Origin: a virus
Lineage: Duplodnaviria; Heunggongvirae; Uroviricota; Caudoviricetes
Length of the DNA stretch: 64,000 bases
Strand: one strand, 5' to 3'
Virus record (IMG/VR): IMGVR_UViG_3300047480_000504
The position numbers and the translations under genes were made by a program. Shown piece after piece: positions 18,581 through 40,654 of this stretch. How positions within the stretch are numbered: position 1 is the first letter of the stretch; every line of letters begins with the position of its first letter. A model generated the notes under the pieces. It was not told where the DNA came from, made no database searches, and saw nothing but the letters and a program-made list of their open reading frames with translations.

Positions 18581-18588
18581 GGAACTAT

Positions 18589-23507: not shown

Positions 23508-23508
23508 T

Positions 23509-23772
23509 ATGAAACAGCGCGGATTTACCCTTATTGAATTGATGATTGTTGTTGTAATGGTAGGCATTGTGGCAACACTAATTGCAGGTGTTGCAGGCTT
23601 TGCTTCAGGCAACAGTTCAGTTAGTTACGGAGTCAATGGCATGACTGAAAGTCGTTGTATCGAAAACTACAAGTTCATCATCGATCAAAAGGGTAATAGC
23701 CGCCAAATCCTTGACGAGTTCGGTAAAGGTGTACGTTGCGAACGAGCAAGTGTGCCCGGAGGTATGCAATGA
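23509..23772 (+). CDS. type IV pilin / pseudopilin-like protein
   Basis: Class-III prepilin signal MKQRGFTLIELMIVVVMVGIVATLIAG (G at -1, F at +1, E at +5). Confidence 0.5.
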   Translation: MKQRGFTLIELMIVVVMVGIVATLIAGVAGFASGNSSVSYGVNGMTESRCIENYKFIIDQKGNSRQILDEFGKGVRCERASVPGGMQ

Positions 23773-24035
23773 CCGTGGTTAAGAAGCCTATCAAAAGTGT
23801 GACACCAACTGAGCTACACTATGACTTAATGGGACGAGAGTTCAAAGAAGGCCAGTATGTAGCAGTTGCCGACAATGGTTTATACATTGCTCAAGTTCTT
23901 CGCTTTACTCCCAAGATGGTGGAAGTAGAAAAGGTTGGAGGCAAGTACCGAAGCAAGCGACTCAAGTATGCTAGCGACATGGTTATCCTGGATGGCCCTG
24001 ATGTGTTTATGTGGGTGCTGACCAATGGACTTTAA
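23769..24035 (+). CDS. hypothetical protein
   Basis: ATGA overlap with the upstream gene. Confidence 0.4.
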   Translation: MTVVKKPIKSVTPTELHYDLMGREFKEGQYVAVADNGLYIAQVLRFTPKMVEVEKVGGKYRSKRLKYASDMVILDGPDVFMWVLTNGL

Positions 24036-24276
24036 AACCATGACCAAAGAAGAAGCATATGACTTCTTGGTTCGTGCTGGTATTGTTCGCCCCAAGGAGC
24101 GAGCATTAGAAGGTCAAGAGAAAGAGGAGATGATGCTTATACTAAAGCTTCTGACTCCCACCGACAGTTCAAACAATCAGCGTTTCTGGACTGACCATTA
24201 CCAATACGGCGACAACAAGTATTCAGTGACATATTTTGATGAAAATGAATATGAAATCACTGAAATCAAACCCTAA
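24025..24276 (+). CDS. hypothetical protein
   Basis: ORF present, but the start is uncertain (24025 or 24040). Confidence 0.35.
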   Translation: MDFKTMTKEEAYDFLVRAGIVRPKERALEGQEKEEMMLILKLLTPTDSSNNQRFWTDHYQYGDNKYSVTYFDENEYEITEIKP

Positions 24277-24308
24277 CTCATAATTACATATAGTTTTAAG
24301 GAAACCAC

Positions 24309-24509
24309 ATGGCAGACATTATCGATGACGCACAAGAAGCAATGGAAGCTCAGGAAGAGCTTCGCAGAGCAACAGCAAAAGAATTCAAGCCTATTCGAAC
24401 AGGCTTTTGTATTGAGTGTGAAGAACCAACAGAGTTCACATTCTGTTGCGTTGACTGTAGAGACACTCATGAAAAACGTGAGCGAATGAAAAGTATCAAC
24501 GGAAAATAA
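24309..24509 (+). CDS. C4 zinc-finger protein (TraR/DksA-like)
   Basis: CIEC ... 10 residues ... CCVDC. Confidence 0.45.
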   Translation: MADIIDDAQEAMEAQEELRRATAKEFKPIRTGFCIECEEPTEFTFCCVDCRDTHEKRERMKSINGK

Positions 24510-24545
24510 TCAAGATGGGTAGTTACCGTATCAGCTAAATATCTG

Positions 24546-25769
24546 ATGCGTTTACGTGAACTATTATCAGAAGTTAAAATCGACAATCACAAAGGTGCTG
24601 GTGCAGTTCCTTATAACCAAGACGTAGACTACTTTGGCCTACAGGTTATGATGAAGCCCAGCACATTCCTACGACTGGCTGCACCGCTGGGTCAAGAGCA
24701 CAGTGCCGAACTAGAAAAATACATTGCCGACGGTGGTGCAATTGGTGCTCCGTTTTTAGAAATTAAAATCCCGCCAGAATGGGATGACGGTGACTTCTCT
24801 AAGCCTGCACAAGTTGCAGGTCACGAAGGTCGCAATCGTATGACAGCTATTCAAAAGCTGGAAGGTGATACACCTATTGAAGTGCATATCTTCCCTCGTG
24901 GTGGATACCGTGCTCGAGACATTACTCCAGAGTTTAGGTCTGCAATTGCTCGTGGCTTACAAGCTGAAAAGGCTACAAACATTATTGCAGGTCCGTTATT
25001 TGAAGATGACTTAGAAGAAGGTTGGCGAGATACACTTACTAACCTGGCCATTGCAGGTGGTGTTGCCGCAGGTGGCATGGGCGGTATGATGGCCAAGCAA
25101 GGAGCCGAAAACTACTTCAAAGAGCCCACTGCCGTAGTTGCACAGGCCCCACAATCTAAGCAAGCAGAAGCACCAAAGACATTTGCACAAGCCAAGTCAG
25201 CTCCAAGTGCGCCAGCCGCTGTCAAAGCCGAACCAAAAGCTGCCGCTAAAAAGATTGATGTTAAACCAATTACTGGAAATCCTCTTGAAAGCGTATTGTT
25301 ACAAGTTGCAAAATCATCTGGCCTACAAGGTACAGAACTTGCGGCATTTATGGCCCAGTGTGCTCACGAAACCCTGGACTTCAAGCGTCTAACAGAATTT
25401 GGTGGCAGCTTGGACTTCCGCAAATATGATCCAAAATATGCTCCAGGAAAAGCCAAGGCTCTGGGCAACAAGCATGTAGGCGATGGTGCAAGATATAAGG
25501 GTCGTGGATTCATTCAAATTACAGGACGTTGGAATTACAAGCAGGCCGGACAAGAATTAGGCTTACCACTGGAAAAACATCCCGAGCTACTTGAAAAGCC
25601 AGAAATTGCTGCCAAGGTATCAGTTTGGTTCTGGAAGCATCGTGTGCAACCAAACGTAGATAACTTTAAAGATACTACCAGTGTTACAAAACAAGTGAAC
25701 CCGGGCCTGCGTGGACTAGAACAGCGTAAGGATAACTTTGCTGATTACATGCAAGTTGCCATGAGATAA
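24546..25769 (+). CDS. two-domain protein: N-terminal domain with MRLRELL leader, Ala/Pro linker, C-terminal GH19 lysozyme-like domain
   Basis: C-terminal region MAQCAHETLDF ... YKGRGFIQITGRWNY ... VWFW matches the GH19 (chitinase-like phage lysin) catalytic region. The linker is AAVKAEPKAAAKK. Confidence 0.65.
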   Translation: MRLRELLSEVKIDNHKGAGAVPYNQDVDYFGLQVMMKPSTFLRLAAPLGQEHSAELEKYIADGGAIGAPFLEIKIPPEWDDGDFSKPAQVAGHEGRNRMTAIQKLEGDTPIEVHIFPRGGYRARDITPEFRSAIARGLQAEKATNIIAGPLFEDDLEEGWRDTLTNLAIAGGVAAGGMGGMMAKQGAENYFKEPTAVVAQAPQSKQAEAPKTFAQAKSAPSAPAAVKAEPKAAAKKIDVKPITGNPLESVLLQVAKSSGLQGTELAAFMAQCAHETLDFKRLTEFGGSLDFRKYDPKYAPGKAKALGNKHVGDGARYKGRGFIQITGRWNYKQAGQELGLPLEKHPELLEKPEIAAKVSVWFWKHRVQPNVDNFKDTTSVTKQVNPGLRGLEQRKDNFADYMQVAMR

Positions 25770-25826
25770 TGTCTTTTTGAACTGCCACAAGTTCAGCCAA
25801 AAAACTAAATATAATACACGGTTTAG

Positions 25827-26123
25827 ATGATTCTAGCCATTAATAAAGGAAAAGAAATGTTATCATTTTTAAAGAAGCTATTTGGATTTGGCCCTGCGCC
25901 AGTTGCAGAAGCACCATACAAAGTAGAAGCTCCAGCACCAGTTATCGTAACTGATGCAACTGAGTCTGTAGCAGTTCCAGTTGCGGCAGCTGATGAAGCT
26001 CCTATCGAAATTGTTCCAGTTGCAGAAGCAGTTGCCCCAGTAGTTGCAGCCAAGAAGCCACGTGCTAAAAAGCCGGCCGCTGAAAAGAAGCCACGTGCTA
26101 AAAAAGCTCCTAAGGCCAAATAA
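25827..26123 (+). CDS. histone H1/AlgP-like basic-tail protein
   Basis: Ala/Pro/Val-rich, ending KKPRAKKPAAEKKPRAKKAPKAK. Confidence 0.4.
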   Translation: MILAINKGKEMLSFLKKLFGFGPAPVAEAPYKVEAPAPVIVTDATESVAVPVAAADEAPIEIVPVAEAVAPVVAAKKPRAKKPAAEKKPRAKKAPKAK

Positions 26124-26938
26124 TGTTCTTGTCTGATATTACTCCACGAGTTACTGTATATGAATCCCTGCGTCAAGTAAACGGACGTTGGGCCCGTGTT
26201 AACACGGAAACAAATACAGTCGTGGAGTTTTATCACGGTGACAACACTGTTATCGTTGAAGGCGGTAATGTTTTCAAGAGTGCAGAAGGCGAAGAACTAA
26301 CACAGCGTATTAACCAAGCTGATGTAGAACCAACTATCCGCTTTCTTGAAAAAATTACAGGCATTCCACACTTTGAACATGCACTAGGTACTACTGGCAA
26401 GACTCCAACAAGCGGAGACTTAGATATTGGTATGCCGCCTGGTGTTACCAAAGAGGAATTGGTTGCCAAGCTAAGTGCCTGGTGTTCACAGCATGGCGAA
26501 GATTCAAAAGCATTTATTAGAAAGTCTGGTATTAGCGTACACTTTAAAACACCAATTGGTGGTAGTCCCGAGCGTGGTTATGTACAAACTGACTTTATGT
26601 TTGTTCCTAACCTAGACTTTGCAAAATTTGCAATGGCTGCTGATCCACACAGCAAGTACCGCGGTGCCCACAAACAAATTCTACTAAGTAGCATTGCTAA
26701 AGTAAAAGGCTTTACATGGAATCCAACCACTGGTTTAATTGATCGTGCAACAAAGAAGTTAGTTGACAACGGCGACGACCCAGATTACATTGCTACACTG
26801 CTATTTGGTCATGGCTTTGATCGTACTAGTTTAACCAGTGTAGAAGCAGTTCTTAAAGCACTAGAAAATAATCCTGAGCGTGAAGCGTTATTAGCAGATG
26901 CTAGAGAAACTTTAGGCCGCGAAGGAGTTGAAATTTAA
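26123..26938 (+). CDS. hypothetical protein
   Basis: ATAATG overlap with the upstream gene. Confidence 0.45.
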   Translation: MFLSDITPRVTVYESLRQVNGRWARVNTETNTVVEFYHGDNTVIVEGGNVFKSAEGEELTQRINQADVEPTIRFLEKITGIPHFEHALGTTGKTPTSGDLDIGMPPGVTKEELVAKLSAWCSQHGEDSKAFIRKSGISVHFKTPIGGSPERGYVQTDFMFVPNLDFAKFAMAADPHSKYRGAHKQILLSSIAKVKGFTWNPTTGLIDRATKKLVDNGDDPDYIATLLFGHGFDRTSLTSVEAVLKALENNPEREALLADARETLGREGVEI

Positions 26939-26939
26939 A

Positions 26940-28436
26940 ATGTTATTACGTCAATTATTAACTGAAGCACAAACTTTAGACCCAAGCGCAATTAAAAAAC
27001 GAGAAGGTCGATTTGAGCAATTTTTGCAATACATCAAAGACAAAAATCCTTTCTACACTGTAGACGGCGAGGCAGTTGTTATTGCACAAAGCGAAATCAA
27101 ACGTCTACAAACTCTAAATGACACTGGCGAGTTTTCAGGACAAGTTATGTTAAAAGATGCTGATGGAAAAAATTGGCCGTTGAGCAAGTTCTTAAAGACT
27201 CCTCCTTTTGGCCAAGCAGTTGTCCCTGGCGGCGATGGCAGCGAAGGTGACAGTGAAAACGCAGGTAAAGAAGCACTAATAGTAAAACCCAAACAAATTG
27301 GTATCACTGACAAAAACTTTAAAGCAACTGACTTGGGCAAAATGATTGTTTCTAATTCTGCGTTAAAGTCTACAGAATACGGAAAAGTAGTTATTGAAAT
27401 GGCCAATCAGATCATGAGAGGCCAGCCTGCTGTTATACCCGAACAGTTCAGACGCAACAAGGCAATACGAGCAGCTATCATTGATTATGCTGGCGAGTAT
27501 CTAGGCGTGTTGGCGTTAATTTACGGGCAATCTGAATTTCCAAAGCAAGCCGAGTTCTTAAAGTGGTTAGGTGGAAGTTTAACTGATTTAACTTTGAATT
27601 TTCCCGGCAAAACCAATAACCCATTGGCTGATAGCTTTGCAACTGTAACTAACCCAGAATCACAGCGCCAGATTAATATTTCTAGCAAAGGTCAAAAAGG
27701 TGGGGCGGCCCCTAGCATTGGTGCATCAATTACAGTACCCAACGAAATGCGAGGTAAAAAGAAATTCCAATTTGCAATCGACTTTATTGACCTACTTCAG
27801 AACAAGTCTTTACCAAAACCAGCCAGTGTAAGTCAGATATTTCAGGCCATGAATCTACTACACTCAAATAAGCCAAACTTGATTCCTGACGAATTTAAAA
27901 AATATGTTCCTTGGAAGCCAAGTATTATGGACGAAGTCATGAGTAGTATCCGTGGCAAGACACCAATGGCCAAATATCAAGAAATTATCAGCAAGGAAGA
28001 AGGCAACGGAACCGACGGCGGCAAGTTGGCATACGCAGCCAAGAAAGCTGTAATCAATGCATTCAACAGTGGGGAAGTTCCTGAATTTCAGGCCGCAATC
28101 TTAGAAATTTTAGATATGAACTTTGTTCAGCAGTATGCAGATATTGAAAGTCTAAGAACTGGCGTAGTTAAATTCTACACCCAATGGCCTGCCAAGTTAG
28201 ATGGTGTTGTCACAGTTGAAACCAAATCAGGTGCAACAGACCCTACCAAAGGAGCATTTAGCTTTAAACTAAAGCCGCCAGGATCAAAAGCTGATCCAAT
28301 GCCCGACTTGGACCCAGATGATAACGTAGTCGCTAAGCCTAGCTCAATCTCAACAAATCGCCAAACAGTCAAGAAGATTGTGCCCAAGGACAAGCCTGCT
28401 ATGACTACAACCAGCACTACACGTCAACTAAAGTAA
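26940..28436 (+). CDS. hypothetical large protein with MLLRQLLTE leader
   Basis: ATG at 26940 immediately after the upstream TAA. 499 aa. Confidence 0.5.
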   Translation: MLLRQLLTEAQTLDPSAIKKREGRFEQFLQYIKDKNPFYTVDGEAVVIAQSEIKRLQTLNDTGEFSGQVMLKDADGKNWPLSKFLKTPPFGQAVVPGGDGSEGDSENAGKEALIVKPKQIGITDKNFKATDLGKMIVSNSALKSTEYGKVVIEMANQIMRGQPAVIPEQFRRNKAIRAAIIDYAGEYLGVLALIYGQSEFPKQAEFLKWLGGSLTDLTLNFPGKTNNPLADSFATVTNPESQRQINISSKGQKGGAAPSIGASITVPNEMRGKKKFQFAIDFIDLLQNKSLPKPASVSQIFQAMNLLHSNKPNLIPDEFKKYVPWKPSIMDEVMSSIRGKTPMAKYQEIISKEEGNGTDGGKLAYAAKKAVINAFNSGEVPEFQAAILEILDMNFVQQYADIESLRTGVVKFYTQWPAKLDGVVTVETKSGATDPTKGAFSFKLKPPGSKADPMPDLDPDDNVVAKPSSISTNRQTVKKIVPKDKPAMTTTSTTRQLK

Positions 28437-28475
28437 AATTAAGTAGCACTTTATTAATCTAGCGCAAACTTTTAA

Positions 28476-28511
28476 ATACTAAAGTAGGGAATTTAGGCCC
28501 CACTTTAGTAT
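28476..28511 (+). promoter_or_regulatory. hairpin abutting the csgF-like start codon
   Basis: 10-bp arms ATACTAAAGT (28476-28485) and ACTTTAGTAT (28502-28511) with a 16-nt loop. The right arm ends one nt before the ATG at 28512. Confidence 0.35.
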
Positions 28512-28991
28512 ATGAAAAAGATAACTTTAGCACTAGTTTCAAGCGTGGCATTAAGTGCAGGTGCCGCCGAACTACAACACAATTTTAATAGCCCAGCCTT
28601 TAGCGGTTTGGGCTATTCGTCGCATGTCTTAACTCTAAAGCAGTTAGAAGATCAACAAAAAGACAAAAACAAACAAGCCGCAGAAGCATTAAAAGCGGCC
28701 GCTGAGCGTGAGGCTGCAAATACACCACAGGCACGTTTTAAAGCCAGCATGGAAACTCGCATTTACAGTGAGTTGGCCAAGCGTATTAGCGATAGCTTGT
28801 TTGGTTCAAGTCCAAGCGCACCAACTTGCACACCTACCAGCAGTGGCGGCCCATGTGGTGACATTGACATTGGCGGACAAAACATTACTTGGACGATCCA
28901 AGGTACAAACATAATTGTTAGAATCGCTGAAATTGCAAATCCAAACAATTACACAGAATTAACAATGCCTTATGCGGCATTTAACATCTAA
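28512..28991 (+). CDS. CsgF-like curli assembly protein
   Basis: Signal peptide. The mature N-terminus ELQHNFNSPAFSGLGY matches the CsgF N-terminal FxFxNPxFGG motif. It is positioned directly upstream of the CsgG-like gene. Confidence 0.5.
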   Translation: MKKITLALVSSVALSAGAAELQHNFNSPAFSGLGYSSHVLTLKQLEDQQKDKNKQAAEALKAAAEREAANTPQARFKASMETRIYSELAKRISDSLFGSSPSAPTCTPTSSGGPCGDIDIGGQNITWTIQGTNIIVRIAEIANPNNYTELTMPYAAFNI

Positions 28992-29000
28992 GGAACAACT

Positions 29001-29858
29001 ATGAAAAGAACAACGTTATCCTTAGCAATATCAGCGGTACTTGTGCTGTCGGGTTGTGCTACAGGTTCTGCGATACGAGAAAAAGTCACTGGCAATCAAT
29101 TTGATGCACCAGTGGTTGAACAAAATGTATTTTTAAAAGATCAGTCGGCCAAGTTAATGCCGCCTGCAACTGGCCCAATCCCAGTGGCTGTTTATGGCTT
29201 TCAAGATAAAACTGGTCAGCGTAAAAGCATTCCTAACATTGCCAGCTTATCAAGTGCAGTTACACAAGGTGCAGAAAGCTACTTGATCAAAGCATTACAA
29301 GATGTTGGACAAGCTCGTTGGTTTACAGTATTAGAACGTGTTGGCTTAGAGAACTTAATCAAAGAGCGCCAAATGATTCGTCAAGCTCGCGAACAGTACC
29401 AAGGCAAAGATGCCAAGCCATTAACACCAATGATGTTTGCAGGTATTATTGTTGAAGGCGGTATTGTTGGTTATGACAGCAACACATTAACAGGCGGATC
29501 CGGTGTTCGTTTATTAGGCATTGGGGCAAGCACACAATATCAAAGCGATACTGTTACAGTTAATTTAAGAACAGTAAGCGTTTCTACAGGCGAAGTGCTA
29601 ACAAGCGTTACAGTGACCAAAACTGTATTAAGCTACATGGACAAATTTGGTGTGTTAAAATTTGTTGACAGCGGAACACAAAGTGTTGAAGCTGAAACTG
29701 GCGCTAGTATTAATGAAAGCATCAATAAAGCAGTTAATTTGGCTGTTCAGGCTGCTGTAGTCAATACTATTCACGAAGGTGCTCGTAAGGGGCACTGGAG
29801 TTTTAAGGAAGATAAGCCGGCGGCTGAAGAAGTAAAAGGCGGGGCAACTGCACAATAA
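29001..29858 (+). CDS. csgG: CsgG-family curli secretion channel lipoprotein
   Basis: Lipobox LVLSGC. Colinear with E. coli CsgG across the whole length: VAVYGFQDKTGQ vs VSVYNIQDETGQ, WFTVLERVGLENLIKERQMIRQA vs WFIPLERQGLQNLLNERKIIRAA, IIVEGGIVGYDSN..GGSGVRLLGIGASTQYQ vs IMVEGSIIGYESN..GGVGARYFGIGADTQYQ, LRTVSVSTGEVLTSV..KTVLSY vs LRVVNVSTGEILSSV..KTILSY. Confidence 0.8.
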   Translation: MKRTTLSLAISAVLVLSGCATGSAIREKVTGNQFDAPVVEQNVFLKDQSAKLMPPATGPIPVAVYGFQDKTGQRKSIPNIASLSSAVTQGAESYLIKALQDVGQARWFTVLERVGLENLIKERQMIRQAREQYQGKDAKPLTPMMFAGIIVEGGIVGYDSNTLTGGSGVRLLGIGASTQYQSDTVTVNLRTVSVSTGEVLTSVTVTKTVLSYMDKFGVLKFVDSGTQSVEAETGASINESINKAVNLAVQAAVVNTIHEGARKGHWSFKEDKPAAEEVKGGATAQ

Positions 29859-29952
29859 GTTTAAGAAAAACTGTGCATGGATCTTGCTTGTACAGTATGT
29901 AGGTCTTGGAAAAACTTACACTCTCTGGCAAGATCATAGAGAGTTAATTAAC

Positions 29953-29964
29953 GGGATATATCCC
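29953..29964. promoter_or_regulatory. 12-bp perfect palindrome GGGATATATCCC
   Basis: Lies between csgG-like and the curlin-repeat gene, 40 nt upstream of the ATG at 30006. Hairpins at 29877-29931 precede it. Confidence 0.35.
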
Positions 29965-30005
29965 AAGGAGCTAGGCAGAGAAAAGTAATCTGTTTAGGTT
30001 TTAAA

Positions 30006-30803
30006 ATGAATAGAAGTATAACAAAAGTTTGTTTGCTTACAGCGGCATTAATGGCTACTGGCACTGCATGGTCCCAAGCCGCAACTGGCCCAAACAAAGT
30101 ATACATTGAACAAATTGGCAATAGCAACACTGTTACCATTCAACAAGTTGGCGGAACAAACAACGTAGGTGGTATTGCGTTGAGTACACCTACTAGTGTT
30201 AGCGCAAGTGGCATCACAACACTAAGTCCTGCGGCACCAAGTTCGTCTAACTATGCTACAATTACAGGTAGTAGCAACACGGTTGCACTTACACAAACTG
30301 GTAACGGCAACAGTGCTCAGTATGACTTGCAAGGCAACAACAACGTTTACACTAGTACAGTAACTGGCCACAGTAACCAAACTAGTCTAACAATTGGCGA
30401 TGTTAACAATGCATCAAACTTGCGTAATACTGTTACTGAAACTATCACAGGTGACAGCAACTTGATTATTCAGCAATTGGTGGGCAGTGATATCACTAGC
30501 ACTACTGCAATCACTGGCAACTCAAACCAAATTACCAAAGAGTTAAAAAGCTCAAACGGTACAAGTGATATTGACATTAGTGGTAACAGCAACGTGTTGA
30601 ACATTCAACAAGTGGATGCGGCTGGTGCTAATGGTCACTACTTAAAGCAAGTTATTGCTGGTAGCTTTAACAGTATCACAACTCAACAACAAGGTACAAA
30701 CGATACCACAGTTGATATCCGCGCAACCGGCAGCAACAACACAATTACTGTAAGAACCAGCAGTAGTAGTATTGTTACTCCAGGTACAGCTATTGCGAGA
30801 TAA
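30006..30803 (+). CDS. curlin-repeat amyloid subunit-like protein
   Basis: Signal peptide followed by at least 7 imperfect repeats of the curlin type (e.g. VYIEQIGNSNTVTIQQVGGTNNV, VALTQTGNGNSAQYDLQGNNNV, LNIQQVDAAGANGHY). Composition is Gln/Asn/Gly/Ser/Thr. Confidence 0.6.
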   Translation: MNRSITKVCLLTAALMATGTAWSQAATGPNKVYIEQIGNSNTVTIQQVGGTNNVGGIALSTPTSVSASGITTLSPAAPSSSNYATITGSSNTVALTQTGNGNSAQYDLQGNNNVYTSTVTGHSNQTSLTIGDVNNASNLRNTVTETITGDSNLIIQQLVGSDITSTTAITGNSNQITKELKSSNGTSDIDISGNSNVLNIQQVDAAGANGHYLKQVIAGSFNSITTQQQGTNDTTVDIRATGSNNTITVRTSSSSIVTPGTAIAR

Positions 30804-30806
30804 TCA

Positions 30807-31913
30807 ATGTGGAAGGCGCTGTTTGCCACACTTCTAATCGCAAGCAATACTACCACTTTTGCCAGTGGTAGTATTGGTGTTGTGTCCGACAATAAAGGAA
30901 CACAATGTGAAGTACAACGTGGCAAAACAAAATCATCAGGCATAAAAGGTGCTAGCATTGAAAGCATGGATACCTACCTCACACAAGCCTGTGCCTCAAA
31001 CATTACATTTAAAGACGACACCAAAGTAAAGGTTACAGAAAACTCCAAGTTGGTAATCGATGACTTTGTGTTTGATCCAAAAAATTCAGATGCTGGCAAA
31101 CTAGCAATGAAAGTGACAATGGGCACTGTTCGTTATGCCAGCGGACAAATTGCTAAAAATAATCCACAACAGGTTGCAGTTAAAACACCAACTGCCAACA
31201 TTGCTGTTCGTGGTACAGACTTTTCAATGACTGTAGATGAAACAGGTCAAAGTTTAATTGTTCTATTGCCAAGTTGCAAAGAAGAAAGCGAACAAAAGAA
31301 ATATGAGTTAGAGGAAAATCGTTGCAGAGTTGGACAGATATCTGTATCTAATAGTGCTGGCACAGTGGTATTAGATAAGGCATTTGAAGCCACATACATT
31401 ACCAGTGCAGACATACGTCCAACTGCACCAACAGTTATTCATACTGTTGAAAGTAAGATCAACAACAATTTAATTATCGTACGTCCGCACGAAGTAGAAC
31501 GTGCTATCCGCGACAACACTGGTCGTACCAAACGCGAAGAATTAGAAGCTGAAATTGAAGCCGAGGCCGCCCGTCGTTTAGCGCAACGTGTTCGAGAGTC
31601 CAACGAAGAACTTGAACGTGCAAGATTATTAGCAATAGCAGAAGCTGCCGGTAAAACTGGTTGTAATGCAAGTACTAATATTTGCGTTACTTGGGCTAAT
31701 CCTGATGCACAGGAAATACAAAGCCGTGGCAAGGGCATAGCATTTAGAAGCAACGAAGATCATTATGCTGAAGTAAAGACACAAGGCTACAGTAGCAATA
31801 CTGCAATTACCATTGTACATAACGATGCCAGTGCCAGTGAACTAATTGGTGCAGGTGGCGGCGGGGGCAATACTGTTTATATCAAGCAGAACCTTGGGGT
31901 GCTACGCAGATGA
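30807..31913 (+). CDS. secreted FecR-domain-like protein with C-terminal curlin-like half-repeat
   Basis: Signal peptide. GTVRYASGQIAK ... ANIAVRGTDFSMTV has a FecR-like fold signature. Coiled-coil segment. The C-terminus is GAGGGGGNTVYIKQNLG. Confidence 0.4.
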   Translation: MWKALFATLLIASNTTTFASGSIGVVSDNKGTQCEVQRGKTKSSGIKGASIESMDTYLTQACASNITFKDDTKVKVTENSKLVIDDFVFDPKNSDAGKLAMKVTMGTVRYASGQIAKNNPQQVAVKTPTANIAVRGTDFSMTVDETGQSLIVLLPSCKEESEQKKYELEENRCRVGQISVSNSAGTVVLDKAFEATYITSADIRPTAPTVIHTVESKINNNLIIVRPHEVERAIRDNTGRTKREELEAEIEAEAARRLAQRVRESNEELERARLLAIAEAAGKTGCNASTNICVTWANPDAQEIQSRGKGIAFRSNEDHYAEVKTQGYSSNTAITIVHNDASASELIGAGGGGGNTVYIKQNLGVLRR

Positions 31914-32086
31914 TGTTTGAAAGCGAATTGCGTCACATGTACCAGGCCTGGCAGCAAGGACAAGACAATTACATACTTGATTCACACCGTTTTGTTGAAT
32001 GGGCAGCGGCATGGAACAAGGCATCAACAGATGTAATGCTAAAAGAGCTACAGCGTTATTCTTGGTTTAAAAGGTTAGAGGCATGA
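31910..32086 (+). CDS. small hypothetical protein (58 aa)
   Basis: ATGA overlaps at both ends (31910-31913 and 32083-32086). Below the ORF-track cut-off. Confidence 0.3.
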   Translation: MMFESELRHMYQAWQQGQDNYILDSHRFVEWAAAWNKASTDVMLKELQRYSWFKRLEA

Positions 32087-32646
32087 AAAAGATATTTTTA
32101 TTATTGTTGTTATTGTGTTTAAATGCGTTTGCCCAAACAAATAACAGCCGAGTTTACATTGACCAAATTGGAAATATGAGTAGCATAGCTGTAAACCAGT
32201 CTGGAACAAAGAACAACTACGCTGAATATATCAGCAGTGGATCATTGAACACTATAGCAATCACTCAAACTAGCAATTCTCTTACTGTGTCAAACTACGC
32301 AGTTGTAACAGTGCCTAGCGACAATAATACAGTAAATGTTATTCAGCAAAGCATTGGCGGAGACAAAGTAATCTTTGCCACCGTTAATAATGGCGGTAAT
32401 AGTTTACTAATTCAACAAAAGGATTCGGGAAGTCACTGGGCTGATATTACCCTTTCTGGCGGTAGTAAAAACGTTGATGTTACTCAGCAAGGCAGTGCCA
32501 GTCACATGGCTCGTATCAATCTAAGTGGTTTGGCACAAGATTTAAGCATAACTCAAAGTGGTAGCACTCAACAATACTATTCAATCACTAGCAATTGTGC
32601 TACAGCAGGTGGTTGTGCTAAGATCACTGTCAATCAAGGACAGTAA
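32083..32646 (+). CDS. curlin-repeat amyloid subunit-like protein (second paralog)
   Basis: Signal peptide MKKIFLLLLLLCLNAFA. Repeats VYIDQIGNMSSIAVNQSGTKNNYAEY, IAITQTSNSLTVSNYA, VNVIQQSIGGDKV, LLIQQKDSGSHWADI, VDVTQQGSASHMARI and LSITQSGSTQQY. Confidence 0.55.
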   Translation: MKKIFLLLLLLCLNAFAQTNNSRVYIDQIGNMSSIAVNQSGTKNNYAEYISSGSLNTIAITQTSNSLTVSNYAVVTVPSDNNTVNVIQQSIGGDKVIFATVNNGGNSLLIQQKDSGSHWADITLSGGSKNVDVTQQGSASHMARINLSGLAQDLSITQSGSTQQYYSITSNCATAGGCAKITVNQGQ

Positions 32647-32673
32647 GACTTAAAATAGTATAAATACGTTACT

Positions 32674-34683
32674 ATGAAATTACGTGACGTCAACCCCCAA
32701 CAACCAGTTTTAGCCGAACAACAGCTAGACGAAATTAACATGAGCCCATCTAGCTTAAAGCAGTTGGCCAGCCAAATCACAGCCCGCGCAGGTATGGAAT
32801 TTGAAATGATCGTTCCAAATGCCGAAAATAACGAAGGCGGCGATATGGAACCTGACTATGATCAAGATCAGCGTACTCGTAGCTTTGGGGACATTGAAGA
32901 ATTCTTTAACGATGGGGATTACAACGGTTCGCGTCAAGTGCGTGAATTAATAGCGGCACTACAAGAACGCTATTACGAGTGGGAAAGCGAAAAGATTGAC
33001 GAAGATTGGGCGTCAGACGGGGAAGACTATTTGCGTGATTGGATCCACAATAACGAATGGATCGAAGAAGATAAAATTCGCGAGCATTTAGAATCACAAG
33101 GTCTTGACGAAGAAGAAATTGATGCGGCCATGTCAGCTGGCAACAGTGCTCCACGTTATAGTAAACTGGATGTACAACAGGCCGCACGCGAATCAGATGA
33201 AAATTACGATCGCTACATGGAAGCTAAAAGTGCCGCAGATGAAGAATTTGATGAATTAGTAACGTCTGAGTGGGAAAGTCGTGGTAGCATGTATGACTCT
33301 GCACTGGACGAGTATCGCGAAGAAAATCAAGGCAATGCTGATGAAGAAGACTTTTTATCGTCTGAGGGTTTACGATACATGAGTGATGTTGCCAATGAGT
33401 TCAGTGGTGATATTACATGGCCCTATTGGACAACACCGTACGGTGGCGAAGTTAGTGCAGAAGAAGTTGCCAAGGACTTTGCTGAAGCAATTGGACGTAG
33501 TGTAAAAGCCAGTGGCTCTTATCACTCAGGTGGCGTACAGCGTCCCAATGCCGAAAACTTGCACTACATTGTAGAACCAGACGGTAGCTTAGAGGCTGAT
33601 GACAGCGGAGATGGAGGCTTGGAGTTTGTTAGCCCGGCACTGCCTATTGCTGAACTATTAAGTGACTTAGACAAAGTTGCCAAGTGGGCCAGCAGTTATG
33701 GCTGCTACACAAACAACTCAACTGGTTTGCACATCAACGTCAGCGTTGAAGGCTGGTCGGGCGATGTTGGCAAGTTAGACTATGTCAAGTTGGCATTGTT
33801 GTTAGGCGACAATTATATCTTAGACAAGTTTGGTCGTGCTGGCAATACCTATTGCAAAAGTGCCATGAACGAAATCAAATCTCGTGTAAGTCAACGTCCC
33901 GAAGATGCAGGTGTGCTACTGCAAAAGATGAAAAGTGGCCTAGACAGTTTGGCCAGTAAAGCAATCCACTCTGGTGTTACAAGCAAATACACAAGTATCA
34001 ATACTAAAAATGGTTACATTGAATTCCGTAGTCCTGGTGGCGACTGGTTAGGAGCGTATGCCGCTGATCCTGGTTCTATTACCAATACCTTGCTACGATT
34101 TGTTGTAGCATTAGATGCCGCAGTGGACCCAGAGAAGTACAAACAAGAGTACTTGAAAAAGTTATACGCAATCTTACAACCCAAGACACACAACGACACC
34201 ATGGCCTACTTTGCACAGTATGCCGCAGGACAAATGCCCAAGGCTGCATTAAAGAGTTTTATTCGTCAAGCACAGTTAGAGCGTCAAGGTAAAAAGCCTG
34301 AGCCCGAGCAAAAAGAACCAAATTACTATATTTCTGATCGCGACACTGGTCAAGTTTATCACAAGTATTATGCAGCCAACAACAACGATGCATTTGAATA
34401 CCTACAGCGTTGGAAAGCACAAAGCTCGGCCCATGCCGGTGGCGATCACTTACAGTATGGCAAGATAATGCCGGGACAAGAACCTGGACAAACTACACCT
34501 AGATCTAGCGGTGGCGAGTGGACTGGCCAGTGGCTAATTAAAGACGGCAGTGATAGAGTGTTACACTCGTTTGGTGGTATAGGAAATAATCAAAGTGATG
34601 CAAATAGATTTGCTATCCAATGGCTAACTAGAAACGGATATGGACACGGTACTGAAGTCAGTGTAGTTCCAGAAATGAGATAA
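32674..34683 (+). CDS. large acidic protein with MKLRDV leader
   Basis: 669 aa with a very acidic N-terminal third. Confidence 0.5.
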   Translation: MKLRDVNPQQPVLAEQQLDEINMSPSSLKQLASQITARAGMEFEMIVPNAENNEGGDMEPDYDQDQRTRSFGDIEEFFNDGDYNGSRQVRELIAALQERYYEWESEKIDEDWASDGEDYLRDWIHNNEWIEEDKIREHLESQGLDEEEIDAAMSAGNSAPRYSKLDVQQAARESDENYDRYMEAKSAADEEFDELVTSEWESRGSMYDSALDEYREENQGNADEEDFLSSEGLRYMSDVANEFSGDITWPYWTTPYGGEVSAEEVAKDFAEAIGRSVKASGSYHSGGVQRPNAENLHYIVEPDGSLEADDSGDGGLEFVSPALPIAELLSDLDKVAKWASSYGCYTNNSTGLHINVSVEGWSGDVGKLDYVKLALLLGDNYILDKFGRAGNTYCKSAMNEIKSRVSQRPEDAGVLLQKMKSGLDSLASKAIHSGVTSKYTSINTKNGYIEFRSPGGDWLGAYAADPGSITNTLLRFVVALDAAVDPEKYKQEYLKKLYAILQPKTHNDTMAYFAQYAAGQMPKAALKSFIRQAQLERQGKKPEPEQKEPNYYISDRDTGQVYHKYYAANNNDAFEYLQRWKAQSSAHAGGDHLQYGKIMPGQEPGQTTPRSSGGEWTGQWLIKDGSDRVLHSFGGIGNNQSDANRFAIQWLTRNGYGHGTEVSVVPEMR

Positions 34684-34684
34684 T

Positions 34685-35530
34685 ATGAAAATACAAGACG
34701 TCACAGAAGGCTACGGCCGATACTATTGTTCCACAGATAAAAAGTGGAAGACTCGTAAAGGTCCCAAGCAGACTAGAAAAGTAGCTGAAGGCTCATTTAA
34801 AGATGCTAGTCCGATGACTAAAGATACAGTAAAAACAGATCGTATCCGCAGCCTTAAGAATCTTATCTCTATTGCCAAAGAACAAGGACGACAACTGCGA
34901 GTTCAAGAACTTGAGTTAGAACTAAAGAAGTTGCAAGGTGTGGCGGAAGAAAAGCAACGTTTAGATGCCAAGTGCTGGGATGGTTATAAAAAAGACGGCA
35001 CTAAGATGAAAGGCGACACAAGAGTCAACAACTGCGTCAAAGAAGACTCGCTAGAAGAGTACGGCGATACAGCGCAAGGTCAAAAGATGTTGACCAAGGT
35101 ACAGAAACGTGCTGTAGATAGAGTAGTATCTAAGAAGGCAGATACAGACCCCAAGTATGCCAAGAAGAATTCAGACTCTGCCAAACGTGCCTGGGAAAGA
35201 ATGGCAGACTTAGAAGAAACTTACGACGGTGACGAGTTTTTTGAAGCCTACGGTGAGTTATGGTATAACGAAGATGAACAGCTAGATGAAGCTGAATACC
35301 AAGGCCGCTCAGTACCACTTGGCAAGCCCATGCAAGGCGATGTTAAAAAGTTCAAAGTGTACGTAAAAGATCCGTCAACTGGTAATGTTAAAAAAGTAAA
35401 CTTTGGCGATCCTGATATGAAGATTCGTAAGAGTAATCCAGCGGCTCGTCGTAGCTTCCGTGCTAGACACAACTGCGACAATCCAGGTCCACGTACAAAG
35501 GCACGTTACTGGTCTTGCCGCAAGTGGTAA
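34685..35530 (+). CDS. basic protein with MKIQDV leader
   Basis: ATAATATG junction. Lys-rich. Confidence 0.45.
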   Translation: MKIQDVTEGYGRYYCSTDKKWKTRKGPKQTRKVAEGSFKDASPMTKDTVKTDRIRSLKNLISIAKEQGRQLRVQELELELKKLQGVAEEKQRLDAKCWDGYKKDGTKMKGDTRVNNCVKEDSLEEYGDTAQGQKMLTKVQKRAVDRVVSKKADTDPKYAKKNSDSAKRAWERMADLEETYDGDEFFEAYGELWYNEDEQLDEAEYQGRSVPLGKPMQGDVKKFKVYVKDPSTGNVKKVNFGDPDMKIRKSNPAARRSFRARHNCDNPGPRTKARYWSCRKW

Positions 35531-35531
35531 T

Positions 35532-35948
35532 ATGCTGATACGTGAACTGTTTGAACCAAACAAACCGTGGCAATGGAGCTTCCGTGGCAGCGAGGAAGCA
35601 GTTGCAGTGTTTCATGTTGGCGAAATTCCTTACATGTTTCATGCTTACGGTACTGATGGCGTATGGGAAGTTGAATTTAAACGCCACGGAAGTAAACTTG
35701 ATCGTGCCAATAAGTTTGGCTTGACTGGTACTGGCAACTCAGCCGAAGTCATGAGCACAGTAGTTGACATCATGCGAGAGTTTTTAACCAAGTACAAAGA
35801 TCAAATTGAAACACTAACGTTCTCAGCCAAGGAAGACTCGCGACAAGGGTTGTATGCACGAATGGTCAAACGACTATTACCCTCATGGACCATGCATCAA
35901 TCTGGTGAAGAATTTGTATTGGCAGCTCCAAACGATCCTGTCCAATAA
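35532..35948 (+). CDS. hypothetical protein with MLIREL leader
   Basis: ATG at 35532, two nt after the upstream TAA. In frame with the listed 35460 ORF. Confidence 0.4.
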   Translation: MLIRELFEPNKPWQWSFRGSEEAVAVFHVGEIPYMFHAYGTDGVWEVEFKRHGSKLDRANKFGLTGTGNSAEVMSTVVDIMREFLTKYKDQIETLTFSAKEDSRQGLYARMVKRLLPSWTMHQSGEEFVLAAPNDPVQ

Positions 35949-36591
35949 CGTCATCTTCGAAGACTGGACCTGGTCTTGCAGTCGTAAGTAACACACATTA
36001 ATCAAGCGCAACAAAAGGTTAGCAGGCCGGTCAATATTCTGCTGGGTAAGCATCTAAGTGTGTGCCGATGCCCAATTCTGTGAGTGCGCCACGGACTTGT
36101 ATTCACTACCCGTCTTCGTACGGATGCCTTAAAACGGTGCCCCTTTGGGCTTCACGTTTGAATACCAGTATACAGGTTGAGTGCAGTGTAAACTGACTTA
36201 GATCCAATACGTTCATAGCAACACATGACACCGAGGTTGCTTTAAAAATCGTAGCAGGTAGGGTAAGGTACATAGCCCAGAAACGTGGAATCCCAAACAC
36301 CTGTTGTCTCAGTGTGGCGATACTACTCAGCAAACAACCACTCACGACGCCCGTTATCAGGGTGTCGTATGAGCTCACAATCTAGCAAAACTTTCATCTT
36401 GTAATCAAATTTTTCGTGTTAACCAAAAACACAATAAGAATAATTTTAACCCGCAAAAATATGGATGCACCGTAAAAATTATATGCCGCAAAATTATGGT
36501 TAACACGAAGACTATGACTTCGTCTATGGTCCTTAATGAATAGCTGTGATTGGACCGGGTCCTTTGTTTGACTTGACTTTCAGACAAAAGT
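35949..36591. ncRNA. candidate non-coding / structured RNA region (unassigned)
   Basis: About 640 bp with no credible ORF on either strand, in an otherwise gap-free genome. Locally GC-richer with multiple short stems. No tRNA T-loop motif was found. Confidence 0.2.
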
Positions 36592-38643
36592 ATGCTAAAT
36601 TATAGTATGAAAAACTTTATTCCTGGACCATGGAGTATTGCCTGGGTAGCTGTTACGGCAGTTGTACTTGTTGCATTAAAAATCTCCAACCCCAAGCCTG
36701 TTGAAAGCATTCAACTCAAAGGCTTTGACACATTACTTGCTACAGATACACCAGTTGATTCTGATCGTGTTGTTATCGTTGACATTGGCGAAGCCAGTAT
36801 CGAACGCTTGGGCCAATGGCCTTGGCCGCGCAAGGATCTAGCACGAGCCATTGATCGCATTCAAGAACTAGGTGCATCAGCAGTTGTTGTTCCTGTTATC
36901 ATGAGTGAAGCAGATCGACTAGGCGGTGACAAGGACTTAGTTAATACACTGGCACATACAAACAGTGTTATTGCACAAGCACCTACTACACAAAATAAAA
37001 AGCCTGACGCTGTTCGTCGTGGTGTTGCTGTTATTGGTGGTGATCCGCTAGAGTGGACTTACACATGGCCCGGCGCACTGAGTCCTTACAAGCCCCTGGC
37101 TGATGCAGCCGCTGGTGTTGGTACCAGTGTTGTTGCTCCTGAAGTAGACGGTGTTGTTAGACGCATGCCACTTATCGTAGGCGTAGGCGATCAAATATAT
37201 CCCAGCTTGCCAATCGAAGCACTTCGTGTTGCTACAGGACAAACCAGCTATCAAGTCAAAATGAGTTCAGCTGGTATTGAAAAAGTTCGTATTGCTGGAC
37301 AACCTGTTGTCACAACAGACGAACGAGCTAGAGTTTGGCTACGATGGAACAAGAACTTCACACGCTATGAATTATCTGAGCTGTCTAAGAAAAAAGTAGA
37401 TCTTCGAGGCAAAGTGGTAGTGCTGGGTCTAGCAGTAGAAGGCCTAGGTGGTATTATTGCTACACCACGTAGTGAAGCCTGGGCACACGATATTCAAGCA
37501 CAAACTGTGCAGACTTTGCTTGACGGTGATAGTCCTGTACGTCCTGCATTTGCCAATACTATTGAATTGATAACAATTGTGTTGATAGCGTTTCTACTAA
37601 TTTTCGCAATGCCTAGATTGCCGTTTTGGGCAGTAGGCACAGCATTACTTGCAACAGTGGGTGGTGTAGTGTGGGGTAGCTTCTTTGCTTGGACTAATTA
37701 CCTACAGCTATGGGACATTTACTTTTTAACTATCAGTGCAGTTGTATTATATGGTCATGCCTTGTTTGCTAGATTTGTAATTGAGTTCAAACAAAAGCAA
37801 CAAATCAAGAAACAGTTTGGTACGTACCTAAGTCCAGCACTGGTTGCCAAGCTACAAAAGAATCCCGAGATGTTGCAGTTGGGCGGTGACGAACGTGAAT
37901 TGAGTATTATGTTTACAGACGTTCGTGGCTTTACTACGATCTCTGAACACTATGGTCGAGATGTACAAGGACTTACTAAAATTATGAACCGTTATATGAC
38001 TGCAATGACTAAAAAGATCATTGACAATAACGGCACGTTAGACAAGTACATTGGCGATGCCCAAATGGCATTTTGGAACGCACCCGTTGACGAAGAACGT
38101 CATGCACACATGGCTGTTAAAACAGCATTAGAAATGATGGAGAGTTTGGATGAGTTTAATCGAGAAGTTACGGCAGAAGGTATCCCGCCTTTTGGTATGG
38201 GTCTTGGGATTAATAGTGCAGTTGTTGTGGTCGGTAACATGGGATCTGATCAGCGTTTTGACTATACTTGCCTGGGCGATGGCGTCAATCTTGCGTCCCG
38301 ACTTGAGGGACAAAGTAAGCCTTATGGCGTACGAATTATATTGGGACAGCGAACTGCTGAACTTGTTAAGGATGAATACCCGACGATAGAATTGGATTGT
38401 ATTGCAGTTAAAGGCAAGAATGTAGGTGTTAAAATCTACACGCTAGGCGCAACCAATACAACACTACACGACACATATCTAACTGCATACTATCGCGGTG
38501 ACTGGGACCGTGCCAAGAAACAATGCGAAAAGCTGATCAAGTTAGATAACGAACTACGACAGTACTATGAAAACATGTTAGAGCGCATGAATGAAGGCTT
38601 GCCTGCTAATTGGGATGGCACATACCGTGCCACAAGTAAATAA
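36592..38643 (+). CDS. CHASE2 sensor-domain class III adenylate/guanylate cyclase
   Basis: N-terminal TM helix, a CHASE2 region (GQWPWPRKDLARAIDRIQELGASAV) and three TM helices. Cyclase core motifs: MFTDVRGFTTISE, YIGDAQMAFWNAP and LGLGINSAVVVVGNMGS. Confidence 0.8.
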   Translation: MLNYSMKNFIPGPWSIAWVAVTAVVLVALKISNPKPVESIQLKGFDTLLATDTPVDSDRVVIVDIGEASIERLGQWPWPRKDLARAIDRIQELGASAVVVPVIMSEADRLGGDKDLVNTLAHTNSVIAQAPTTQNKKPDAVRRGVAVIGGDPLEWTYTWPGALSPYKPLADAAAGVGTSVVAPEVDGVVRRMPLIVGVGDQIYPSLPIEALRVATGQTSYQVKMSSAGIEKVRIAGQPVVTTDERARVWLRWNKNFTRYELSELSKKKVDLRGKVVVLGLAVEGLGGIIATPRSEAWAHDIQAQTVQTLLDGDSPVRPAFANTIELITIVLIAFLLIFAMPRLPFWAVGTALLATVGGVVWGSFFAWTNYLQLWDIYFLTISAVVLYGHALFARFVIEFKQKQQIKKQFGTYLSPALVAKLQKNPEMLQLGGDERELSIMFTDVRGFTTISEHYGRDVQGLTKIMNRYMTAMTKKIIDNNGTLDKYIGDAQMAFWNAPVDEERHAHMAVKTALEMMESLDEFNREVTAEGIPPFGMGLGINSAVVVVGNMGSDQRFDYTCLGDGVNLASRLEGQSKPYGVRIILGQRTAELVKDEYPTIELDCIAVKGKNVGVKIYTLGATNTTLHDTYLTAYYRGDWDRAKKQCEKLIKLDNELRQYYENMLERMNEGLPANWDGTYRATSK

Positions 38644-39358: not shown

Positions 39359-39742
39359 TTGTTATATTTTGCATATGGTATGAATACCAACAATAATGCT
39401 ATGTCCAAGACTAGCAAGCGTTTAGGCCCAGCAGTGCTATTAGATTACAAGTGGGAAATGCTACAGTTTGCCAATGTATTTGAAATGAGGGGTGTCACTT
39501 CAATTGGTATTCTATGGGAAATTGATGAAAATGAATTAAAAGAGTTGGATATGCGCGAAGGTTATCCAACATTTTATAATCGAGTTATTGCAGAAGTAGA
39601 ACACAACGGAGAGCTGGTTCAAGCCTGGGTATATTATATGACCCCAGAATATAGAACAAAACTAGCCAATGAAAAACCGAGTCAACAATATTATGACTCG
39701 GTTGTTGAGGGCTTCGCGCAAGACGGAATTGTTATTTCTTAA
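39359..39742 (+). CDS. gamma-glutamylcyclotransferase (AIG2/GGCT-like)
   Basis: N-terminal LYFAYGMNTN (the YFAYGSNM motif) plus a catalytic Glu context EGYP. TTG start. Confidence 0.55.
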   Translation: MLYFAYGMNTNNNAMSKTSKRLGPAVLLDYKWEMLQFANVFEMRGVTSIGILWEIDENELKELDMREGYPTFYNRVIAEVEHNGELVQAWVYYMTPEYRTKLANEKPSQQYYDSVVEGFAQDGIVIS

Positions 39743-40542: not shown

Positions 40543-40654
40543 CTTGGCAATCCTTTATCTATAGTTGTATTTATTAAAACGGACCAAAAACAGGACCACT
40601 TTTGTGTTTGGTAAATAGAGCGAAGGTTAATGTGCAAAAACAATAAATATATCT

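Follow-up and report, generated by a model that had tools for sequence, protein, structure and literature searches.

Does a tailed virus equip the cell that it infects with a secretion route for curli-type amyloid fibres, and what would such fibres do? The question is posed by IMG/VR record IMGVR_UViG_3300047480_000504, a 64,000-nt stretch of Caudoviricetes DNA (the window), which is only part of a genome. An earlier note, made from the sequence, described six co-oriented genes at positions 28512-32646 as a curli-type (type VIII secretion system, T8SS) module that consists of a channel and fibre subunits. The family assignments support this description, and the six open reading frames (ORFs) are all present at these coordinates on the plus strand. 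Signal peptides, which the note assigned to all six, are visible in the translations of five, the exception being a 58-aa ORF. We propose that a mobile phage cassette of the pelagiphage kind equips the infected Gram-negative cell for type VIII (curli) secretion and fibre formation, and we regard this reading as very probable. It rests on the homology of all parts, the predicted fold of the first curlin (Cur1), the gene order, the co-conservation of the genes and their contiguity with phage DNA. The PHROGs and Pfam scans covered about 70 of the about 100 ORFs in the window, and the comparison set comprises 80 loci retrieved from IMG/VR, which are labelled with L-numbers (e.g. L013).

The channel protein was claimed to be a lipoprotein that can be aligned with E. 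coli CsgG, and this is what was found. CsgG matches PF03783 with an E-value of 2.8e-53 (residues 54-268 against positions 4-208 of 210) and the solved E. coli CsgG with an E-value of 1e-50 (residues 11-270 against 8-256 of 277). Its N-terminus is a lipoprotein signal peptide with an LSGC lipobox, MKRTTLSLAISAVLVLSGC, and most CsgG relatives likewise have an L-[ST]-G-C lipobox. The protein scores 189 bits against the NCBIfam equivalog NF011731 and does not reach the cutoff of 505; judged by its sequence, it is a member of the CsgG family and not the enterobacterial ortholog. Many relatives encode a CsgG of 370-443 aa (ORFs of 1.2-1.33 kb in L016, L017, L022, L024, L032, L033, L036-L042 and others), compared with 285 aa in the window.

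The CsgF-like protein encoded upstream scores 30.2 bits against PF10614 (gathering score 25.8, E 5.7e-7, residues 5-100), and its single sequence retrieves nothing significant from the PDB. The mature N-terminus quoted in the earlier note, F-N-S-P-A-F-S-G-L-G, is present and constitutes the most conserved part of the family, with F25, P28, F30, G32 and G34 invariant in 49 relatives. We take this motif to be the counterpart of the E. coli CsgF plug peptide F-x-N-P-x-F-G-G, which plugs the CsgG barrel of E. coli. Because the motif is invariant, the CsgG:CsgF complex is probably kept, provided that the two motifs are equivalent as we assume.

The proposed substrates of the channel are two curlins, Cur1 and Cur2. 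As the earlier note had it, they are Gln/Asn/Gly/Ser/Thr-rich proteins of ~22-aa repeats: these residues make up 58% of the mature part of Cur1 and 54% of that of Cur2, and the self-similarity peaks, measured against shuffled sequences, lie at lag 22 for Cur1 (z 5.0) and at lag 23 for Cur2 (z 4.8). Sec signal peptides are visible on inspection of both translations. Cur2 exceeds the gathering score of the curlin-repeat family PF07012 (Curlin_rpt; 21.9 versus 20.7 bits) and, as a single sequence, matches the solved cryo-EM curli subunit 8C50 (E 2.4e-7). Cur1 matches the same structure as a profile of 35 relatives (E 6e-6), and its AlphaFold model, obtained from a 49-sequence alignment, consists of stacked short strands (pLDDT 79.8, pTM 0.77). 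The phage curlins thus display the tandem strand-turn-strand repeats of ~22 aa in a two-sheet beta-solenoid that characterize the fold, and the repeat motifs of both are invariant or conserved over more than 80 loci. A reading of the curlins as virion proteins was rejected because they carry Sec signal peptides.

Cur2 is far more variable in length than Cur1, ranging from 140 to 759 aa in relatives. In the alignment, a C-terminal curlin domain of ~170 aa is conserved, and the N-terminal part is a variable passenger, 190-570 aa long in relatives and wholly missing in the window. As passenger, Pelagibacter phage HTVC008M and L035 have PA14, and L013 and L060 have an F5/8 type C (discoidin) domain. 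Genes for PA14- or F5/8 type C-curlin fusions are located at 8543-9868 in L001, 12701-13810 in L035, 12936-14849 in L013 and 13374-15047 in L060.

Table 1. Features of the curli cassette and its surroundings (positions in the window)
Feature	Coordinates	Strand	Length (aa)	Basis or remark
TAAATAC promoter-like motif	28473-28479	+		33 nt upstream of csgF; kept even in divergent relatives
11-bp stem-loop between TAAATAC and csgF start	28479-28508	+		Ends 3 nt before start codon
CsgF-like secreted protein	28512-28991	+	159	PF10614, phrog_35372
CsgG, predicted outer-membrane lipoprotein channel	29001-29858	+	285	PF03783, E. coli CsgG match
Cur1, curlin-repeat beta-solenoid subunit	30006-30803	+	265	Length kept among relatives
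Secreted FecR-domain protein: signal peptide, FecR/PupR-like beta domain, long helix, C-terminal curlin-like strands	30807-31913	+	368	
ORF without signal peptide	31910-32086	+	58	Overlaps each neighbour by 4 nt
Cur2, curlin-repeat subunit, minimal form without N-terminal passenger	32083-32646	+	187	Curlin_rpt, 8C50 match
Lineage-specific insert: Amidoligase_2 protein (32674-34683), 281-aa ORF, 162-aa DUF6934-like ORF	32674-35948	+		Pfam
CHASE2-sensor class III adenylate/guanylate cyclase	36592-38643	+	683	PF05226, PF00211, phrog_35576
Small-protein trio: paralogues of 93 and 109 aa with hydrophobic N-termini around a 66-aa ORF	39732-40542	-		phrog_18771

In the mechanism that we propose, the CsgG lipoprotein would form the outer-membrane channel, which CsgF would cap or plug via its conserved N-terminal F-x-S-P-x-F-x-G-x-G. 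The Sec-exported beta-solenoids Cur1 and Cur2 would traverse this channel and assemble into amyloid fibres at the cell surface. From these homologies we infer both fibre formation and adhesion: given the lectin-type passengers (PA14/discoidin) of Cur2 in relatives, the fibres would probably bind glycans and be adhesive, with the window Cur2 representing the bare curlin domain.

Several observations weigh against this mechanism. Against the PDB, the profile of phage CsgF retrieves E. coli CsgF as a non-significant match (E ~0.9, positions 4-52). The constriction of E. coli CsgG is formed by Y51, N55 and F56, whereas the phage protein has I, S and L at these positions and relatives have L, F or I at that of F56. 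It is doubtful, however, that Y51/N55/F56 defines the CsgG family, because the loop is conserved in its length and flanks. Cur1 remains just under the Curlin_rpt cutoff of 20.7 (18.3 bits), which Cur2 exceeds, and a Foldseek search of the Cur1 model against the PDB gave nothing significant. The two curlins score 19.0 and 18.5 bits against the NCBIfam CsgB model NF007506, for which the cutoff is 165; on sequence grounds, neither is assignable as CsgB or CsgA by orthology. A profile-profile comparison (hhalign) of the C-terminus of the FecR-like protein with the last Cur1 repeats is borderline (E 0.064), and 3.9 kb of unrelated genes separate Cur2 from the cyclase in the window. Furthermore, no experiment showing fibres was found for any phage cassette, and Buchholz et al. 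saw no clumping of cells infected with Methylophilales phage Melnitz (PMC9004378).

Are the curli genes phage genes at all? If they were host DNA or the product of a chimeric assembly, the cassette would be bacterial, a possibility that is hardly credible here. Nothing was found in its support, apart from related contigs binned in metagenome-assembled genomes (MAGs) of at least six unrelated bacterial groups. An identical CsgG, with an identical set and order of flanking proteins, is found in four independent assemblies. Three near-identical IMG/VR contigs have a CsgG of 98-99% identity, homologous flanks and upstream genes in common. Related cassettes, whose CsgG is 49-99% identical, are carried by at least 107 IMG/VR contigs, of which the largest measures 353 kb; relatives of the FecR-like protein and Cur1 lie on contigs of up to 357-367 kb, and one relative bears the NCBI name 'Curlin associated [uncultured Caudovirales phage]'. 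The GC content stays at 0.41-0.43 throughout the block and is uniform across the window. Almost all window genes are small and co-oriented. Among them are ORFs that resemble tail-fibre genes, two genes of the GH19 endolysin type and numerous PHROG-only families, and the scans revealed no bacterial housekeeping gene. Because of the four matching assemblies, the shared flanks, the flat GC content and the phage gene content, the curli block is phage DNA, as the earlier note had assumed, and a host chimera is rejected.

The binned contigs can be explained in the same framework. When the FecR-like alignment was scanned against 185,579 species genomes, two kinds of locus emerged. In the first, L090-L095 have the csgF/csgG-FecR-cyclase order and L096 has FecR and cyclase only, and their bins belong to at least six groups of bacteria that are unrelated to one another; the MAG labels of L090-L097 are Luteolibacter, Flavobacteriaceae, Legionellales, Rhodobacteraceae, Bacteroidetes, Pirellulales and Alphaproteobacteria. 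Since bins of unrelated groups keep the viral gene order, these loci are most likely mostly phage contigs mis-binned into MAGs and therefore provide no host information.

Is the cassette itself new? The earlier note, aware of no such system in T4-like phages, considered it potentially novel, a view that did not hold. A tblastn search with CsgG against 50,697 phage records matched HTVC008M and four Melnitz genomes. Both phages are T4-like Kyanoviridae, and their GenBank order is CsgF, CsgG, curlin-associated, FecR-domain/hypothetical, curlin-associated/hypothetical and adenylate cyclase. In the literature, Zaragoza-Solas et al. (2020) gave the first report of a viral curli cluster together with a 'sibling capture' idea (PMC7029224), and Buchholz et al. 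(2022) put forward a pinholin/secretin idea for the Melnitz cluster (PMC9004378). Wittmers et al. (2022) identified CsgA/B, FecR and the cyclase, together with histidine kinases, in myoviruses as well as podoviruses and argued for transfer of the whole module across families; according to that paper, viral curli genes co-occur ocean-wide, were detected at each of the 65 GOV2.0 stations as well as in metatranscriptomes, and phage curli cassettes account for ~0.1% of assembled viral proteins in the ocean (PMC9599517). The cassette is not a new system, because the same gene order is annotated in HTVC008M and Melnitz and was discussed in 2020-2022. The window is a new carrier of a viral T8SS cassette known from the literature.

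The comparison with these phages is close in gene content and distant in sequence. HTVC008M, Melnitz and uncultured pelagimyophages have the same order of csgF-csgG-curlin-FecR-curlin-CHASE2 cyclase, together with both phrog_18771 proteins, and this module order is common to nearly all of the 80 IMG/VR loci. The window displays the csgF-csgG-curlin-FecR-(curlin)-(cyclase) order without csgE that marks the pelagiphage-type cassette, the cyclase being displaced by the 3.9-kb insert. Identities to HTVC008M and Melnitz are 33-38% for CsgF (annotated as such in both), 42-44% for CsgG, 45-46% for the FecR-like protein and 40-41% for the cyclase (over 88-95% of its length, against the cyclase that follows their curli genes). 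Their cluster and the window alike are without CsgE, CsgC and CsgD; the absence of a csgE homolog, stated in the earlier note, holds among the ORFs scanned. Unlike these phages, the window has a 42% GC background, no DNA-level similarity and no flanking genes in common with them. It also differs in its small transmembrane-protein genes, which lie downstream on the opposite strand, in the 3.9-kb insert, in the additional 58-aa ORF, in a Cur2 without the PA14 passenger of HTVC008M, and in having relatives on contigs of up to 353 kb. According to PMC9599517, HTVC023P-type pelagipodophages, which differ from the window in virus family and genome size, encode CsgF, CsgG, a curlin and FecR, to which a second curlin and an adenylate cyclase are often added. 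This T8SS region was read by its authors as a transferable multigene module. It is preceded by one or two histidine kinases, whereas none was found among the window ORFs scanned around the module.

With respect to bacterial curli, CsgG can be aligned over its full length with that of the E. coli/Salmonella csgBAC-csgDEFG system, and both systems have a CsgF family member. In contrast, the window has no CsgE, CsgC or CsgD and adds a FecR-domain protein and a cyclase; its curlins are larger than the enterobacterial subunits (~7-8 repeats and a linker), the CsgB and CsgG equivalog cutoffs are not reached, and the CsgG constriction differs as described above. Both phage curlins are most similar, in sequence and in structure, to Pontibacter korlensis CsgA (8C50; Sleutel et al. 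2023, PMC10192328), likewise a long multi-repeat curlin, although it is a Bacteroidota protein with 24% identity over 195 aligned residues and another number of repeats.

The carrier, which the earlier note called T4-like, differs from the known ones. None of the T4 core genes (gp43, gp32, gp23 and others) was found among the window ORFs scanned, in a partial genome that may still belong to the family, and the T4-type late promoter TATAAATA occurs three times in the window against 3.8 expected, i.e. at chance level. On account of these two findings, the T4-like status is unproven. The gp32, gp59 and gp33 flanks of the HTVC008M and Melnitz cassettes have no match among the window ORFs. Against the phage collection, megablast of positions 1-25000 gave zero matches, blastn of the module gave solely 98-134-nt patches in the FecR gene, and tblastn with concatenated or large window proteins gave almost nothing except a cyanomyophage-like subtilase and tail-fibre fragments. 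A 47-mer taken from the end of the window has no exact counterpart in IMG/VR, and proteins encoded there retrieved short contigs at most. The best match outside the cassette is the subtilase-like protein, which is ~34% identical to cyanomyophage proteins, one of them annotated as a virion/baseplate protein; only a few accessory or structural window proteins have their best matches in cyanomyophages. Scans of the window for tRNAs and Rfam families gave nothing, and no literature report of curli genes in jumbo or huge phages was found. The carrier is an undescribed, uncultured lineage of large phages with no detectable relative among cultured phages, and a known cassette is thereby placed in a different background, with related contigs of up to 353 kb.

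The cassette is larger than first noted and includes the cyclase and the small-protein trio: the block taken to end at 32646 continues functionally to ~40573. The cyclase matches PF05226 (E 3.7e-42), PF00211 (E 3.2e-19) and phrog_35576 (E 4e-232), has the topology of a transmembrane helix, CHASE2, three transmembrane helices and the cyclase domain, and co-occurs with the module in ~45 of the 80 IMG/VR loci. In most relatives, it follows Cur2 directly or within ~2.5 kb. The insert is found only in the window and its nearest relatives (L013, L015, L031, L046 and L052) and is probably outside the cassette proper. Its 669-aa Amidoligase_2 protein (E 6.8e-8) has a very acidic N-terminal third, and TATAAATAC is located 6 nt before its ATG (region 32659-34683). 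The 58-aa ORF that completes the core block has homologs of 47-81% identity in five related loci (L009, L014, L015, L052/L053 and L069), is missing from most relatives and has no Pfam or PHROG family. The two small paralogues match phrog_18771 (E 1e-33 and 6e-30) and are 48-64% identical to two hypothetical genes directly upstream of csgF in HTVC008M and Melnitz. Because nothing else of the pelagimyophage flanks (gp32, gp59, gp33) is in common, the transferable unit comprises ~8 genes.

These small proteins bear on the pinholin/secretin idea of Buchholz et al., in which CsgG, with or without CsgF, would be a gated pore that times lysis and the curlin-like genes would be incidental. The hypothesis was published for Melnitz (PMC9004378). 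In addition, the paralogues with hydrophobic N-termini flank the module, on one side or the other, in ~40 viral loci, a GH19 endolysin gene adjoins them or lies within ~1 kb in L044 and L026, another is situated 2.7 kb upstream of csgF in the window, and the TAAATAC motif is common to csgF and the small transmembrane-protein operon. However, the CsgG lipobox points to the outer membrane, whereas pinholins act in the inner membrane, and two curlins with invariant repeats plus the CsgF plug motif, kept over more than 80 loci, are hard to explain without substrate secretion. Moreover, the lectin passengers of Cur2 relatives point to extracellular binding; the lectin-curlin fusions, of which the accessible parts of the viral curli-cassette literature make no mention, would therefore favour extracellular adhesive fibres over a pore-only role. 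We consider a function confined to the pore to be quite improbable and retain secretion of the curlins as the proposed function of the channel.

What is the function of the FecR-like protein? It matches PF04773 (E 2.2e-9) and, by sequence, nothing in the PDB. Its AlphaFold2 model (pLDDT 70) consists of a beta domain (residues 24-200), a 40-residue helix (241-281) and five strands (308-361) spaced ~12 residues apart, and the beta domain matches the PupR periplasmic signalling domain 6OVK in Foldseek (E 3.5e-5). The earlier note had seen a FecR-like protein with a curlin-like end. The FecR domain was recovered, and the C-terminal strand G-G-N-x-V-x-I-x-Q is kept in all 46 relatives, pelagimyophages included, with Q361 invariant; it is the similarity to curlin repeats that stayed borderline. 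The protein starts with a signal peptide directly before the beta domain and has neither a cytoplasmic anti-sigma domain nor a transmembrane helix. With a signal peptide at its start, the protein is not an anti-sigma factor, and, going by this domain layout, it should not be labelled an iron-citrate regulator. No extracytoplasmic function (ECF) sigma factor or TonB-dependent transducer was detected in the Pfam scans of the window, where the sole sigma70_r4 match is a LuxR protein.

These properties speak against an import channel, in which a CsgG pore left ungated for want of CsgE would admit nutrients, cofactors or siderophores, with FecR serving iron sensing. The idea is in the literature (PMC7029224 and PMC9599517), a FecR domain is present, and no CsgE was recognized. 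Nevertheless, a FecR-like protein with this architecture, in a window whose Pfam scans detected no cognate sigma factor or transducer, is difficult to reconcile with such sensing, and the curlins and CsgF are left unexplained. Import is thus very improbable.

The second kind of locus in the genome scan suggests another role. In 70 bacterial loci, mostly of Alphaproteobacteria, the match is limited to the FecR domain (~residues 60-215). A full-length homolog of the CHASE2 cyclase, of 31-36% identity in most cases, is encoded within a few kb, mostly adjacent, in 20 of these 70 loci, and no csgG, csgF or curlin gene was found near the FecR-domain genes in any of them. Comparable pairs are also known from published operons: as in the window, a FecR-domain protein with a signal peptide is encoded beside a CHASE2 receptor in the Burkholderia BiofilmReg LysM-FecR/CHASE2-histidine kinase system (PMC5192318) and in the case of S. 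meliloti SMc02177 in the CyaD1 cAMP pathway (PMC5498481). Unlike the window, the bacterial FecR/CHASE2 pairs are without curli genes, and the match is confined to the N-terminal domain of the FecR-like protein. Because these pairs occur without curli genes, the viral cassette appears to be a T8SS fused to a pre-existing bacterial sensor pair, a point that, to judge from the gene neighbourhoods, would add to the known picture of the cassette.

Is the FecR-like protein a partner of the cyclase or a substitute for CsgE? Domains of the FecR/PupR type are known to bind outer-membrane proteins at their periplasmic domains, as FecR binds FecA. Combined with the fold match, this would suit a CsgE/CsgC-type periplasmic accessory that binds curlins and delivers them to CsgG or caps the channel, with no link to the cyclase. 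The location of the gene, which always lies between the two curlin genes, the conserved curlin-like strand and the lack of a recognized CsgE would fit such an accessory as well. Nonetheless, the bacterial family of the N-terminal domain repeatedly adjoins CHASE2 cyclases without curli genes, and the cyclase accompanies the cassette in different phage families. An accessory without a cyclase link is therefore a somewhat unlikely, if reasonable, alternative; the protein is more likely to be a co-sensor of the cyclase than a replacement for CsgE, and the two roles are not mutually exclusive.

As the cyclase partner, the FecR-like protein, having gained C-terminal curlin-like strands, would most likely dock on the curlins, as subunits or as fibres, or on the channel from its periplasmic side and report to CHASE2, coupling fibre export to cyclic-nucleotide signalling; both its interaction with the cyclase and the direction of signalling we infer from the gene pairing and domain layout. 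A bolder version is conceivable and, on balance, unlikely as a whole. Here, the FecR-like protein would be an amyloid-coupled sensor whose curlin-like strands are templated on Cur1 and Cur2 and whose FecR domain signals to CHASE2, so that cAMP reports or controls fibre assembly. Together with the lectin-tipped curlins of relatives, this would make a 'stick and sense' organelle across phage families, including genomes of >300 kb.

The cassette may also be subject to selection. In L046 and L052, the genes flanking the cassette are 90-97% identical to those of the window (22713-38643; up2_271 95-97%, cyclase 90-92%), whereas in the curli core CsgF and Cur1 are ~51-61% and CsgG is 75-76% identical. 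Closely similar flanks around a divergent core suggest cassette replacement or diversifying selection, and such divergent alleles in closely related phages would be consistent with diversifying selection on a surface structure. The 502-aa ORF directly upstream of csgF (26928-28436) looks like a hypervariable gene: its relatives are bimodal, with 81-87% or ~24-27% identity, and it has no family match in the Pfam and PHROG scans and no tblastn match in phages. Its neighbour at 26123-26938 is 88-99% identical in most near relatives.

The regulatory signals around the cassette are weak and rest on motif counts and folding. TAAATAC is under-represented in the window (5 observed against 13.9 expected), and three of these copies are located shortly before csgF, the amidoligase gene and the small transmembrane-protein operon, in the last case at a distance of 25 nt (40567-40573, minus strand). 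Of the A/T hexamers, TAAATA shows the strongest concentration in the 45 nt that precede start codons (10 of its 21 occurrences); it may act as a promoter of the T4-late type or mark the start context. Its sites include 11284, 12032, 24536, 25806, 28473, 32661, 38637, 40568(-) and 40644, and it often appears as (C/G)TAAATAnCTGATG ~10 nt before ATG. Only 19 of 68 genes are preceded by a Shine-Dalgarno-like motif. The csgF hairpin occupies the position where a ribosome-binding site would be; RNA folding of 28437-28530 gives -19.8 kcal/mol (z -2.3), and the stem persists in eight close relatives, where one pair is compensatory (GC<->AU, 4:4) and several changes involve G-U. Scans of the window for sigma-70 promoters and terminators returned chance levels. 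A 229-aa LuxR/GerE-family regulator of about CsgD size is encoded at 15190-15879, 13 kb upstream of the cassette. Its identification as CsgD was rejected: it matches the NCBIfam CsgD model with an E-value of 2.7e-13 but with 50 bits against a cutoff of 250, and it has a generic LuxR/FixJ-type helix-turn-helix.

Other genes of the window are directed to the envelope or resemble phage structural genes. Upstream of the cassette, at 22713-23772, a Band_7/SPFH protein whose N-terminus resembles a lipoprotein signal (LATGC) precedes a protein of 87 aa that matches the prepilin-type N-terminal methylation motif (PF07963, E 1.4e-8); both are further envelope-directed genes. The GH19-type endolysin-like genes are located at 24546-25769 and 45282-45917, and the phrog_181 match (E 1.9e-84) was attributed to the latter ORF by sequence inspection only. 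At positions 1-2365, several ORFs carry tail-fibre-type motifs, one of them weakly matching a Pelagibacter phage tail fibre, and a collagen-like (GPP)n ORF is present at 18556-19056. These ORFs indicate that the window abuts a structural/fibre region.

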